In this document: positions 21,641 to 28,306 of the stretch, piece after piece
Position numbering within the stretch: position 1 is the first letter of the stretch
How the letters are laid out: each line of letters begins with the position of its first letter
Notes under the pieces: model-generated
What the model saw: the letters and a program-made list of their open reading frames with translations, nothing else
The model's database searches: none
What the model was told of the DNA's origin: nothing
Translations under genes and position numbers: made by a program
Source: Candidatus Eiseniibacteriota bacterium
Lineage (GTDB): Bacteria > Eisenbacteria > RBG-16-71-46 > CAIMUX01
Direction: 5' to 3'
Assembly: GCA_020633975.1 (NCBI GenBank)
Contig: JACKCR010000010.1
Span: 65,839-129,838, forward strand
Length of the DNA: 64,000 nucleotides

Positions 21641-23128
21641 GTGCTAGACCAACTCGCGCAGAGAGAGTTCCCAGCCCGCCCCATCATCGTCGCGACTGGA
21701 TTCTCGACTTGTCTACTCGGTGACGAGCGAACGCTCCGGGAGTTCGTGATCGGCGACCAGGTGCGGCAGGCTCTGTCGAACGCTGGACACAACGTTCTCC
21801 TCTACCTGATCAACGACACCTACGATCCGCTCGACTACCGACAGCTCCGAGTCGGAGTGAACAAGGATCCGGGTTTGATCGAGCGCTACGCCCCGTTCTG
21901 CGGCATGCCGATCGCCGAGATTCCGGATCCGTTCGGTTGCCACTCCAGCTACGCGGATCACTTCGCCGACGCCTGGATGGCCCGGCTCCGCTCGCTCGAC
22001 ATCCACCCGGTGTTGATCGACTCCCATCGCGCCTACAAACGCGGTCACTACGCTACCTACATCCATCAGGTCCTCGAGCAGTACGCGGAGATCCAGGAGT
22101 CCGTCGCGCACAAGTTCGACGGTGAATACACCCTCAGCCAGCTCTTCCGGGTCCAGTGCCCGACCTGTCGGCACCTCGATCAAACGGAGCTGAAGCACGT
22201 CGAGAACGGTGAAGTCACCTTCTCATGCGAACGGTGCAATCACCGCAAGTCGCTCCCGATGAGCGAGATCGAGGGCAAACTCCACTGGAAGATCGACTGC
22301 GCCGCGCGGTGGAACCTCTACCGGATCGACGTCGAGACGTTCTCCAAGCCCCACTGTGGCCGCCTGGGTACGCTTCGCGTCGCGCGTCATCTCTCGAAGG
22401 AGTTCTTCGGCGGCGCCGCGCCCCAGGTCGCAAGCTACGGGGCCGTCAACCTGAGCCGTGACCTGTCCGGCAAGCTGCTCGACACACTTCCGCCCCAGAT
22501 CCTCAAGGCGATGTTCGCAGAAACGCCTCGACAGGACCTCGTCATCCGACGGGATACGGTCGAGAACTTCTGCCGTCGAGAAGAGTTCCTGCCTTCGGTG
22601 ACGTACGCAGGCTGGGTCCGCCAGGTACTTCCCATTCTCGCTCTCAAGGGCGACCCAGATGGTCTGGGAGGTCACAAGAGCGTCCGAGTCGTTCAGGGAA
22701 GGGCCGAACGCGAGTCGATCCTGCTCGGGAACAACTTCTCACAGCTGTTCTACAACCGCTCGTTCGGAGTTCAGTATCCGGCGTTCTCGGTCCTCGAGAC
22801 AGCAGACACCGATGCAGTCGAAGCTGCGGTCAAGGTGTTGGACCACGCGCTGGCTCTTCGCCAGGACGCTACGGCAGATCAGGCCGATACTCCGGGCCTC
22901 GTGAAGGACTTCCTCCGCGATGTGTCTCAGGATCGAGCGCCGTACGTGTTCCTGCGAGACTTCATGAATCACAAGGTGGGTGCGCACGTGAGCACTGCGA
23001 TCGCGACTGTGCCCGTGCCGTACCTCGAGATGCTACGAGACATCCTCCAACTCCACCTGAGGAGCGAGGGAGCCGTCGTCGACTTCGGAAAGGAGGAGCA
23101 CGATGAAGAGACTCGTGCTGCAGCTTAG
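21641..23128 (+). CDS. Class I lysyl-tRNA synthetase (LysK)-like paralogue with degenerate HIGH and KMSKS motifs. It retains a CxxC...CxxC zinc-ribbon insertion.
   Basis: [21 protein letters not shown] and YKRGHY align with archaeal LysRS-I [21 protein letters not shown] and YKRGEY. The HIGH position reads [10 protein letters not shown] (no His). The KMSKS region reads roughly RDLSGK. Zn ribbon CPTCRH...CERCNH. Confidence 0.55.
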   Translation: [495 protein letters not shown]

Positions 23129-23954
23129 CGTTCTCTGCCTAGCCGCGTTCGTGGGGGCGTGTTCGAACTCGGACACCGCGAACACCACGAACAAGAGCTC
23201 GGCGAACGTCGACAACTCACTGACCCGCGTCCAGGACGCCGGCGTGCTCCAGTGGGGCGCAGACGTCGTGGGCGGCGTTCCCTATGTCTACGAGGACCCG
23301 GATCATCCAGGCGAGTACATCGGCTTCGAGATGGACATCGCGCAGGCGGTCGCGGCTCGTCTCGGCGTCGAGCTCCAGCTCGTCATCAAGGCTTGGGACA
23401 CACTCATCCCGGAACTCCAGCGAGGCAGCTACGACCTGGCCATGAACGGGATCGAGAACACCGAAGATCGGTCCGAAATGGTCCTCTTCAGTGCTCCCTA
23501 TTTCGTGTATGCGCAGCAGATCACGGTGCGCAATGAGACGAACGACATCAATGGACTCGACGACCTCCAGGGCAAGAAGGTCGCGACGCTCTCCGGTACC
23601 GCAGCCGAAGACATCCTTCGGGCCTCGGACGGGGTTCACGTCGTGACCAACCCCGAGATCATCTACAGCTATCGGGACCTGGAAGACGGACGAGTCGACG
23701 CAGTCGTGCTGGACACCCCGATCGCTGCCGCGTACGGGGCTCCGAACCCGAAACTCAAGAACGTCGGTGACTCTTTCGCGGAAGGCGAGTACGTGATCGC
23801 GTTCCGGCGGAACGACGTGGCCCTCCGGAACGCGGTGGACTCGGCGCTCCACCAGATCAAGACCGACGGCACGTTCCAGCAGATCCTCGAGAAGTGGGGA
23901 CTCTTCGACCAACACCAGCAGCGAATCGTGAACATCGATTCAGCATCCAACTGA
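23103..23954 (+). CDS. Lipoprotein of the type-3 periplasmic solute-binding protein family (amino-acid ABC transporter SBP-like).
   Basis: AAGGAGGAG SD. Lipobox LAAFVGAC. The family-3 SBP fold shows motifs WDTLIPELQRGSYDLAMNGI, ATLSGTAAED and DAVVLDTPIAAAY. Confidence 0.8.
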   Translation: MKRLVLQLSVLCLAAFVGACSNSDTANTTNKSSANVDNSLTRVQDAGVLQWGADVVGGVPYVYEDPDHPGEYIGFEMDIAQAVAARLGVELQLVIKAWDTLIPELQRGSYDLAMNGIENTEDRSEMVLFSAPYFVYAQQITVRNETNDINGLDDLQGKKVATLSGTAAEDILRASDGVHVVTNPEIIYSYRDLEDGRVDAVVLDTPIAAAYGAPNPKLKNVGDSFAEGEYVIAFRRNDVALRNAVDSALHQIKTDGTFQQILEKWGLFDQHQQRIVNIDSASN

Positions 23955-23968
23955 ACGGAGAGGGCGCA

Positions 23969-27255: not shown

Positions 27256-27295
27256 TTGCGACGATGACCTCGATCCAGCGGCCGCCATCGATGGA

Positions 27296-28306
27296 GTGGA
27301 GATGGGAGAGATGAAGTCCCCAGTCGAGTACTACATACTCTGCGTGGACGACGATGAGGAGTTCCTTCGCTCCCTGGAGTTCTTCCTGCCCGATCGGATC
27401 AACGATGGATCCAGGCCCGACATGTGGTGCCGGTTCATCTTCCTGGCCGACCCGTCGGAGGCGTTGTCCGTTCTTCACGAACTCGAGGCGGACGGTGAAA
27501 CCCTCGCCCTCATCCTCTCCGATCAGAAGATGCCGGGAATGACCGGCACGGTGCTTCTCGACAAGGCGAGGGACGCCTACGCGGATTGCGTGCGTGTCCT
27601 CCTGACGGGACACGCTGGAATCGAGTCCGCCGTGCTCGCGATCAACGGGGGCACGATCGACGCATACCTCACGAAGCCGATCGAATCCGAAGAGAGCTTC
27701 ACGAAGTGCGTGAGGGAGCTTGTGATCGAATTCCATGTACACCGCACACGCGTCGAGGACGGAGCCACATCAACCGAGATTCGGCCCGTCGGTGTCAGCG
27801 CTGGTGTCGCCGTTCCCGAGGCGACCGGGATCGGCTCGGAACCACAGCTCGAGGACCTGAGCGATCTCATCCGCAGTCTGGTCGAAGACACTCGGACCAG
27901 CTCGAACCGTCCGATCACGTTCCAGTGCGAGCTGGCGGACGACGAAGCCTGGGCCCACGTTCGTATCTCGGATCTCCGGAAGGTCATCGAGACGTTCCTC
28001 GACAACGCCATGAAGTTCTCCAAGGCCGACAAGCCGATCGAGGTCTCCCTGTCCGAGCAGGACGGCTGGCTCGTCGCCACCTCCCGGGACGAGGGAATCG
28101 GGTTTCCGCGCGAACTCTCCGGAGAACTCAGGCGCCCGCGCACGCTGCCGGACTTCGACGGATCCGGTGGGACTCTGCATAGCCTCACACGCGCGAATGA
28201 ACTCGCCCACCTCGCCGGAGGCCGGATCGAGGCGTGGAGCGATGGGATCGGTCGCGGAGCGACGTTCGCGCTCTACGTCCCCTCTGCGCGTCGTCAAGCC
28301 GCCTGA
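27296..28306 (+). CDS. Response-regulator receiver domain fused to a histidine-kinase-like ATPase domain, without a recognisable HisKA.
   Basis: The REC domain has the phospho-accepting Asp in [15 protein letters not shown] and a conserved K in LTKP. The C-terminal half has N/G-box-like motifs [16 protein letters not shown] and [19 protein letters not shown]. Confidence 0.65.

Follow-up and report, generated by a model that had tools for sequence, protein, structure and literature searches.

Several paralogues of aminoacyl-tRNA synthetases (aaRSs) have been put to other uses, including HisZ, PoxA/GenX, GluQRS, MshC, and the cyclodipeptide synthases (CDPSs), and each of these revealed new biochemistry. 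HisZ is a paralogue of HisRS that regulates HisG, and the HisRS-like domain of GCN2 senses uncharged tRNA. The CDPSs have a class I aaRS fold without the HIGH and KMSKS motifs, carry a new active-site signature, and use pre-made aminoacyl-tRNA (PMC2922099, PMC3105412). The paralogues of lysyl-tRNA synthetase (LysRS) that have been reviewed are of class II only (LysU, PoxA/GenX, and LysX; PMC9437257), a single paralogue of class I LysRS (LysRS-I) is reported among 2,588 genomes (PMC5388404), and no derivative of LysRS-I is among the class I aaRS-like proteins (CDPS, MshC, and a MetRS paralogue) that were covered by a 2010 survey (PMC2922099). A 64,000-nucleotide stretch of a Candidatus Eiseniibacteriota genome (contig JACKCR010000010.1; the whole stretch is referred to here as the window) codes for a 495-aa protein related to LysRS-I, for which we have coined the name LysL, within a block of genes that also encodes a solute-binding lipoprotein, an aldehyde dehydrogenase (ALDH), and a sensor kinase.

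LysL belongs to an ancient family derived from class I LysRS that is full length, has had its ATP site excised, has acquired a new invariant motif, and is tied to a specialized ALDH with a catalytic cysteine. In at least six bacterial lineages, the family is also tied to two kinds of membrane signaling module, often with an output in cyclic di-GMP (c-di-GMP). Judged from sequence, this is probably an ancient translation enzyme that has been converted to a new job. No description of the LysL family or its cassettes was found in the literature searched, and within that literature both appear to be undescribed.

LysL is a full-length descendant of class I LysRS

LysL retains the Rossmann fold, the zinc ribbon, and the C-terminal helical domains of LysRS-I, and it descends from that enzyme over its full length. 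An earlier reading of the DNA by a model (the original prediction) had proposed that the 495-aa protein is a LysRS-I homologue, and the similarity is statistically solid. A profile of 60 LysL sequences aligns with a profile of 30 full-length canonical LysRS-I sequences at 100% over 434 columns (hhalign, E = 5.7e-57), and the alignment spans LysL residues 14 to 466, including the C-terminal helical domains and a common GxxxGP motif. The LysRS-I of Pyrococcus horikoshii (1IRX) is the only significant sequence match to LysL in the Protein Data Bank (PDB), and the peptide matches to this enzyme listed in the original prediction, including YKRGHY/YKRGEY, are recovered by HMMER. An AlphaFold2 model built on 60 homologues (pLDDT 90.5, pTM 0.85) matches 1IRX along the whole chain (Foldseek, E = 3.5e-22, TM 0.62 to 0.64), and the next folds are CysRS and GluRS at 7e-8.

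LysL is set apart from the canonical enzyme by its scores against curated models. It reaches 137.5 bits with the TIGR00467 equivalog, below the cutoff of 147.55, and 65.7 bits with NF001968, for which the cutoff is 648; the only Pfam matches are PF01921 (tRNA-synt_1f) and a subthreshold match to DUF7836. The C-terminal domains are no more acidic and no less basic than those of canonical LysRS-I, and because they are kept and have not become more acidic, continued tRNA binding is possible.

The ATP-binding motifs are lost and a new motif is invariant

Four features of LysL, all on the + strand, bear on its active site:

21692 to 21745, +: remodeled beta1-alpha1 loop, with D28-E29-R30-T31 (21722 to 21733) at the position of HIGH (HIGN in LysRS-I)
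22157 to 22237, +: CxxC...CxxC zinc-ribbon insertion derived from LysRS-I, with Cys columns that align with those of the canonical enzyme
22343 to 22354, +: SKPH in place of GKDH, with the Gly and Asp gone and H238 kept
22457 to 22474, +: site of the deleted KMSKS loop, RDLS|GK, where the canonical K-G-x-G-K-M-S-S-S-x-G segment is missing

The N-terminal 109 aa of LysL are too divergent to be aligned with PDB sequences by pairwise HMMER, and the motifs were read instead from mixed MAFFT alignments and from profile-profile alignments. In both, the HIGN of the canonical GITPSGxxHIGNFRE segment is paired with the invariant DERT of LysL; the CLLGD that had been assigned to the HIGH position lies just upstream of it. 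GKDH is replaced by SKAH in the family consensus and by SKPH in the window protein. The KMSKS motif had been described as degenerate, and its loss is clear, but the entire loop is deleted rather than degenerate, leaving a gap of about 9 to 12 columns relative to canonical LysRS-I in all of the pseudo-synthetase clades. Neither type of alignment contains an intact HIGH or KMSKS that had been overlooked.

These losses are embedded in a well-conserved protein. Among the 60 homologues, G27, D28, E29, R30, R33, and E34 are invariant, as are the zinc-ribbon residues C173, C176, C196, and C199; the invariant positions number 44 in all, those of the new G27-D28-E29-R30 motif among them. Thirty-three of the 98 columns that are near-invariant in canonical LysRS-I are kept, and the losses cluster in HIGH, GxDH, and KMSKS. 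The kept columns include R33, E34, D59, D62, the PDP..Y motif, the four zinc-ribbon cysteines, K213, W216, H238, P261, and Y266. Four of the residues, E34, W216, H238, and Y266, are invariant or near-invariant and align with E41, W218, H240, and Y268 of 1IRX, which we take to be lysine-pocket residues; such roles have reportedly been described for 1IRX and for LysRS1 of B. burgdorferi.

Because HIGH, KMSKS, and GxDH are all gone, ATP-dependent aminoacylation can soundly be presumed lost in LysL, in keeping with the earlier expectation that the protein is unlikely to aminoacylate tRNA. The loss is family-wide and is accompanied by a new invariant motif, which speaks for selection and against decay.

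The family has at least three clades

A word-indexed search yields approximately 120 full-length relatives with 38 to 47% identity, none of which has a functional name; they are annotated as "hypothetical protein" or, automatically, as "tRNA synthetase class I (K)." The identical protein in the database is a hypothetical protein from a Candidatus Eisenbacteria metagenome-assembled genome. An exhaustive HMMER search of 1.84 billion cluster representatives gives 568 matches at E of 1e-3 or below, of which 45 are at 1e-30 or below. The top ∼50 matches are without HIGH and KMSKS, and genuine LysRS-I sequences, with HxGN, GKDH, and KMSSS, appear from about E = 1e-30 and match over the catalytic core only.

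The relatives form at least three clades (A, B/B', and C), all with the KMSKS-loop deletion. Clade A includes the window protein; clade B/B' proteins have GDER or GDGRD and are found in Armatimonadota and Abditibacteriota; and clade C proteins have ADNQLREF and are encoded on low-G+C contigs, at least one of which is clearly archaeal. These clades cluster away from the canonical enzymes in a rough neighbor-joining tree without support values. The suggestion that LysL represents a new pseudo-synthetase family is thus borne out, with at least three unannotated clades that are separate from genuine LysRS-I.

A survey of one genome per species (185,579 species) identified 49 loci. The carriers are Eisenbacteria, Krumholzibacteriia, Nitrospirota, Gammaproteobacteria (Oleiphilaceae and Competibacteraceae), Chloroflexales, and many Armatimonadota and Abditibacteriota, including the cultured Abditibacterium utsteinense LMG 29911 and one complete Abditibacteriota genome.

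An aldehyde dehydrogenase is the near-constant partner

The near-constant partner of LysL in all three clades is an ALDH with a catalytic Cys, and not the kinase. An ALDH gene lies within a few kilobase pairs of LysL in about 40 of the 42 genome loci with enough flanking sequence. The original prediction had listed a divergent ALDH among the genes that follow LysL; the gene is there, but it is a key co-inherited partner and not a passive neighbor.

For this comparison the residue numbering and roles are those of ALDH2, namely the catalytic Cys302, the oxyanion Asn169, and, in hydrolytic NAD(P)+ ALDHs, the general base Glu268 and the cofactor contacts Lys192 and Glu399. Alignment to Bacillus subtilis AldY (4DNG) shows that the window ALDH keeps the catalytic Cys in GETCTS (24773 to 24790) and the Asn in PQN, with changes of Glu268 to Asp, Lys192 to Arg, and Glu399 to Gly. 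These features are general among the 46 aligned partner sequences of clades A and B, of which 45 have the Cys (the other is gapped) and 40 have Asn169; all 46 have Asp at 268 and Arg at 192, and Gly is at 399 in all 42 that are ungapped there. The three clade C ALDHs examined also keep the Cys, and two of the three keep both Glu268 and Glu399. Several partner ALDHs have Pfam co-matches to LuxC, an acyl reductase. Because the nucleophilic Cys of the partner is invariant, real chemistry is implied, and the sequences argue for thioester chemistry in the LysL-ALDH system. On this evidence, an enzymatic unit made up of two proteins is at least as well indicated as a sensor that acts alone.

Organization of the cassette in the window

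Between 20.7 and 28.3 kb, the window contains six closely spaced genes on the same strand:

20759 to 21550, +: Gcw_chp-like secreted protein, a probable outer-membrane beta-barrel and often the first gene of clade A cassettes
21641 to 23128, +: LysL, the LysRS-I-derived pseudo-synthetase, 495 aa (PF01921, E = 3.2e-47)
23103 to 23954, +: orphan solute-binding lipoprotein of the SBP_bac_3 family, 283 aa (PF00497, E = 1.6e-34)
23969 to 25387, +: Cys-ALDH/LuxC-like partner, 472 aa from the ATG at 23969 (PF00171, E = 7.8e-58; LuxC, 1.4e-5)
25387 to 27255, +: membrane sensor histidine kinase, 622 aa (HAMP, 5.6e-13; HATPase, 4.4e-24)
27296 to 28306, +: REC-HATPase_c fusion, 336 aa (REC, 4.5e-9; HATPase, 6.9e-12)

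The five open reading frames that had been described, from LysL onward, are all on the + strand at the coordinates first assigned to them, and the two overlaps noted between them are both exact at the level of single bases. The ATG of the solute-binding protein (SBP) gene at 23103 is preceded by a ribosome-binding site, AAGGAGGA, and the gene overlaps LysL, which ends with the TAG at 23126 to 23128, by 26 nt. The ALDH stop codon (TGA, 25385 to 25387) and the kinase start codon (ATG, 25387) share one base (TGATG). The ALDH reading frame is open from 23894 and that of the kinase from 25255. The Gcw_chp-like frame is open from 20600, with the ATG at 20759 as its likely start, followed by the signal peptide MRTFAPMLLLGLALGPVSG. 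The match of this protein to PF09694 is weak (E = 0.006), and that of its homologue at locus L026 is strong (E = 2e-26); a Gcw_chp homologue lies immediately 5' of LysL in 13 fetched loci.

A promoter and terminator scan from 20200 to 29400 gave nothing informative and no interruption of the block, with the proviso that consensus patterns may fit a genome of 62 to 65% G+C poorly. An Rfam search of the whole window, together with a permissive scan 5' of the operon, revealed no lysine riboswitch, T-box, or c-di-GMP riboswitch, and a tRNA scan found no tRNA gene in the window.

The original assignments of the SBP, the kinase, and the REC-HATPase protein are well supported. The SBP is a family-3 lipoprotein with the PF00497 match given above and a VGAC lipobox. 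Its best NCBIfam match is a lysine/arginine/ornithine SBP (6e-41), its closest solved structures are arginine and glutamine binders (about 1e-38 to 1e-33), and all equivalog cutoffs are missed. Neither the cassette of the window nor any of its annotated homologues codes for an ABC permease or ATPase. Because transporter genes are absent and the equivalog cutoffs are missed, the SBP fits a putative orphan, sensor-associated type that binds polar or cationic amino acids.

The kinase is organized as a transmembrane segment, a periplasmic domain of ∼140 aa, a second transmembrane segment, HAMP, an H-box, and HATPase. The periplasmic part has a weak dCache_1 match (E = 0.057), the H-box reads IAHEINTP (26284 to 26307) with a HisKA match that is weak and below the Pfam cutoff, and GTGLGL is present. 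In the receiver, the phospho-acceptor Asp is in the segment 27509 to 27538 and LTKP is present. Taken with the Pfam HAMP, HATPase, and REC matches, the kinase and receiver thus have the predicted two-component signature residues (H-box His, G-boxes, and Asp/Thr/Lys). A further feature of the kinase is a stretch of about 160 aa without a Pfam match between the H-box and HATPase (residues ∼310 to 490), an unusually long insert between the DHp and CA domains that could be a docking domain for cytoplasmic partners.

The genes flanking the cassette are of several kinds. Just 5' of it, and oriented away from it, is a gene for a 973-aa hybrid histidine kinase (17686 to 20607, − strand) in which a transmembrane/sensor region, HisKA-HATPase, two receivers, and a C-terminal Hpt-like segment can be recognized by eye; it could belong to the same phosphorelay as the REC-HATPase protein. 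On the 3' side (28406 to 30227, and 31560 to 33233 on the − strand) is an esterase-family gene (PF00756) whose adjacency is conserved only in the closest relative, L007, and which is probably unrelated to the cassette. Inspection by eye suggests two further genes in the same region, one quinone-oxidoreductase-like and one for an apparent second, unrelated ALDH-like protein of 557 aa.

Genomic context differs among the clades

The clade A order, LysL-SBP_bac_3-ALDH-HAMP kinase-REC protein, frequently with the outer-membrane protein gene first, recurs across phyla and is present in every sufficiently long locus except the variants L015 and L026. The synteny is thus conserved, and the SBP is the most conserved member of the cassette (59 to 70% identity), compared with 37 to 46% for LysL outside the closest relative L007, 42 to 51% for the kinase, and 38 to 54% for the REC part. 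The receiver output is either GGDEF-EAL, in some cases with GAF, or HATPase, and the Eisenbacteria and Krumholzibacteriia cassettes, including that of the window, have REC-HATPase. At L005, LysL carries a naturally fused EAL domain at its C terminus in which the EAL, DDFGTG, and KID motifs are all intact (protein P0036, 416 to 2707), and the fusion is followed by the usual SBP, ALDH, and kinase genes with an extra DUF6399 gene inserted. A Nitrospiria variant has the order outer-membrane protein-LysL-ALDH-TonB receptor-PF04392 SBP. At L015, in a gammaproteobacterial genome, LysL (781 to 2259) is without SBP, ALDH, or kinase genes and adjoins a Crp/Fnr regulator and a nitric-oxide-reductase-like cluster (COX1, a NorQ-like AAA protein, and VWA).

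In clade B, LysL is encoded directly 3' of a GGDEF-HD-GYP protein of ∼965 aa and is followed by a gene for a secreted protein of ∼330 aa. The N-terminal half of the GGDEF-HD-GYP protein is a polytopic membrane region that has no Pfam match and contains no SBP or Cache domain, and the secreted protein has no detectable homology to the Gcw_chp-like protein of clade A or to the nucleotidyltransferase (NTase) of clade C. The ALDH gene is divergently transcribed, often together with a gene for an N-methyltransferase of the NNMT/PNMT/TEMT family (PF01234, E = 3e-41), which is found at L039 (3810 to 4592) and at 10 other clade B loci; its presence is a hint that a metabolite of amine or N-heterocycle type is processed there. 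A tRNA-Lys(CTT) gene lies ∼1.5 kb 3' of the clade B LysL at L041 (10902 to 10974); this proximity is probably coincidental.

Clade C operons contain a Pol-beta-type NTase-like gene, LysL, an ALDH/LuxC-like gene, in some cases a zinc-dependent alcohol dehydrogenase (ADH), and a metallo-beta-lactamase (MBL)-fold hydrolase, with gene overlaps of 4 nt or of 14 to 26 nt and no signaling genes. The ADH is encoded separately at L059 and is fused to the ALDH at L057. The NTase-like gene overlaps the LysL start (L056, 7199 to 8020; L059, 830 to 1711; L057, 7065 to 7994); the PF01909 match of its product is at 2e-8 for L057 and weak for L059, and the products at L059 and L056 share 38% identity. The NTase-like protein might supply the nucleotidyl-transfer step that is missing from LysL. 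The L059 operon adjoins archaeal ribosomal protein genes and a canonical-type LysRS-I, which is present on the − strand (6510 to 8116) as two open reading frames of 59 aa and 447 aa about 84 nt apart and could reflect a frameshift, an assembly error, or a genuinely split gene. The same locus has a 95-nt ARAGORN candidate (298 to 392, "tRNA-???") with a four-base anticodon (tgag); this may be an archaeal tRNA interrupted by an intron, or it may be spurious.

The earlier view of LysL as a scaffold embedded in a signaling module holds for the clade A cassette, which recurs across phyla, but clade C has no signaling genes, and the ALDH is the more constant associate.

Possible roles of LysL and its partner

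We tentatively favor the possibility that LysL and the ALDH form an enzyme pair that needs no ATP: an activated lysyl group, plausibly that of Lys-tRNA, would be accepted and reduced, and the resulting amino aldehyde would be used as a signal or be linked to one. LysL would no longer activate lysine and would instead hold lysine that has already been activated, most plausibly as Lys-tRNA(Lys) supplied by the housekeeping synthetase, and present the lysyl group to the ALDH; the ALDH Cys would take the acyl group as a thioester, and reduction by NAD(P)H would then give an amino aldehyde, by analogy with glutamyl-tRNA reductase, ProA, and LuxC. In the archaeal-type operons, the adjacent or fused ADH would carry the aldehyde on to the alcohol, and the arrangement of an ALDH followed by, or fused to, a zinc-dependent ADH (L059 and L057, respectively) fits a pathway from activated carboxylate to aldehyde to alcohol. 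In clade A, the pair would be co-transcribed with an outer-membrane channel, the orphan SBP, the HAMP kinase, and the receiver protein, and the cue that the two-component circuit reads or produces may be the product made from lysine or, alternatively, flux through LysL and the ALDH. The output would be a second kinase-like domain in the window and c-di-GMP turnover in other phyla; the ties to signaling are of two independent architectures plus one LysL-EAL fusion. An enzymatic role that uses tRNA is suggested because all of the tRNA-contacting domains of the parent LysRS-I are kept and because the CDPSs set a precedent.

A more specific and rather doubtful form of this proposal is that the pair evolved independently as a second counterpart of glutamyl-tRNA reductase, with LysL capturing Lys-tRNA(Lys) and the Cys-ALDH reducing the ester to lysine aldehyde, the bacterial product being a new class of signal. 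The aldehyde may be converted downstream to an amino alcohol, a methylated amine, or a cyclic imine, and in bacteria the product would be sensed by the outer-membrane protein, the orphan SBP, and the histidine kinase, with a c-di-GMP or phosphorelay output.

Several observations weigh against reduction of Lys-tRNA. There is no systematic linkage to tRNA genes among the 55 related loci scanned, the tRNA-Lys at L041 being the sole case, and there is no nearby ALDH at L015 or L030 and none on the short contig L062. The clade A cassettes are without an ADH, an exporter, or an importer, which on paper leaves a signal-synthesis loop incomplete. The altered cofactor residues of the clade A and B ALDHs (Lys192 to Arg and Glu399 to Gly) mean that NAD(P) use is not assured, and the Pol-beta-type NTase-like gene of clade C could provide an activation route unrelated to tRNA. 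The acidic D28-E29 at the old phosphate site would fit a cationic small ligand, and hence a sensor, equally well.

For the bacterial clades, a non-catalytic sensor or adaptor has much the same likelihood, on the pattern of HisZ with HisG or of the HisRS-like domain of GCN2 with uncharged tRNA. The LysL pocket would bind lysine, a related cationic amine, or uncharged tRNA(Lys), and LysL, as a co-sensor in the cytoplasm, would bind and modulate the kinase, GGDEF-HD-GYP, or EAL enzymes, with the ALDH as a second metabolic input or a regulated target. LysL is encoded beside signal-transduction proteins of two unrelated architectures in many phyla, its signaling partners are variable, and in one case, the only one known, LysL is naturally fused to an EAL domain that is intact. 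The ATP motifs are all lost while pocket-like residues are kept, the new acidic D28-E29 lies at the former phosphate-binding place, the cassette has neither a transporter nor an obvious export step, and the insert between the kinase H-box and ATPase offers a possible docking site. However, the clade C operons (ALDH, ADH, MBL, and NTase) have no signaling gene, such that the ancestral role looks metabolic, and the catalytic Cys of the ALDH is invariant. The GDER motif is also invariant in clades A and B but is ADNQ in clade C, which is odd for a simple conserved ligand site.

A less probable alternative is a redox-driven ligase, in which the ALDH would oxidize an amino aldehyde to a Cys-thioester and the acyl group would escape hydrolysis, since the hydrolytic Glu is missing, and would be passed to an acceptor held by LysL, either an amine, giving an amide, or the 3' end of a tRNA, with NAD+ reduction in place of ATP. 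This would explain the loss of the ATP site if aldehyde oxidation supplies the activation energy, and the ALDHs of clades A and B resemble CoA-acylating ALDHs, which transfer the acyl group and do not hydrolyze it, in having Asp in place of Glu268 (46 of 46) with the Cys and mostly the Asn kept. An ADH beside an ALDH also fits oxidation from alcohol to aldehyde to acyl group. Nonetheless, Glu268 and Glu399 are both kept in two of the three clade C ALDHs examined, no acceptor was identified, and we know of no precedent for an aaRS scaffold in redox-driven acyl transfer.

It is less probable still, and on balance quite improbable, that the remodeled Rossmann (HUP) site binds c-di-GMP or another signaling nucleotide, such that LysL would be an effector of the neighboring GGDEF, EAL, or HD-GYP enzymes. 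All of clade B and roughly half of clade A have such neighbors (GGDEF-EAL or GGDEF-HD-GYP), there is one EAL fusion, and the new GDERxLRE motif in the nucleotide loop is rich in Arg and Asp; but the cassettes of the window and of other Eisenbacteria and of Krumholzibacteriia are without a c-di-GMP domain, clade C is without signaling genes, and the obligate ALDH would be left unexplained.

That LysL is a decayed LysRS-I duplicate in a chance gene order, with which the loss of catalytic motifs would by itself be compatible, is rejected as having almost no likelihood in view of ∼120 full-length homologues, 44 invariant positions, a new motif, a confident full-length fold, and a gene order that is shared by Eisenbacteria, Nitrospirota, Gammaproteobacteria, and others. 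A LysRS self-resistance copy, as in antibiotic clusters, is also rejected, since a protein without HIGH and KMSKS cannot replace the housekeeping enzyme.

Any of these models, whether a tRNA-dependent amino-aldehyde synthase, a redox-driven ligase, or a GCN2-like lysine or tRNA sensor for a bacterial kinase, would be new if true, and the outcome would be either new enzyme chemistry or new input logic for two-component and c-di-GMP signaling. Because the cultured A. utsteinense LMG 29911 carries a homologue, experiments are feasible and the question is approachable.

Comparison with known systems

LysL is most closely related to LysRS-I itself (LysK; 1IRX, PF01921, and TIGR00467), with which it shares the Rossmann core, the PDPxGCHxSYxxHF motif, the zinc ribbon, GKLxW(K/R)xD, H238, Y266, and GxxxGP. 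It differs in having DERT and SK(A/P)H and no KMSKS loop, in scoring below TIGR00467, and in forming a separate group in the tree; its gene is always an additional one, located in special operons, and no copy carries a housekeeping annotation.

Like the CDPSs, LysL has a class I aaRS fold from which HIGH and KMSKS have been lost and in which a new signature has appeared, and by analogy it may also use aminoacyl-tRNA. However, the CDPSs are derived from TyrRS/TrpRS and are single-domain proteins (about 230 to 300 aa) without an anticodon-binding domain, whereas LysL is derived from LysRS-I and keeps all of its domains. LysL is related to the CDPSs in sequence only at the superfamily level and has no Pfam CDPS match, and its closest structures are LysRS-I and then CysRS and GluRS, which places it outside the CDPS family.

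The proposed logic of an activated acyl donor, a Cys thioester, and NAD(P)H reduction to an aldehyde would resemble that of HemA, ProB/ProA, and LuxE/LuxC. ProA and LuxC are members of the ALDH superfamily, and the LysL partner has LuxC co-matches, but HemA has a different fold, and clades A and B are without a kinase or a synthetase that has an ATP site.

In its genetic organization, the clade A cassette is comparable to LuxP-LuxQ, NspS-MbaA, and RpfF/RpfC/RpfG, with a transporter-less SBP beside a membrane sensor, often a REC-GGDEF-EAL or HD-GYP output, and an enzyme paralogue in the operon as a possible signal synthase. The SBP_bac_3, HAMP kinase, LysRS-like, and ALDH families all differ from those of these systems, however, and no homology was found. 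HisZ and GCN2 are similar to LysL in that a non-aminoacylating synthetase scaffold is tied to an enzyme or a kinase, but both are derived from class II HisRS, whereas LysL is of class I, its kinase is a separate bacterial histidine kinase, and its constant partner is an ALDH.

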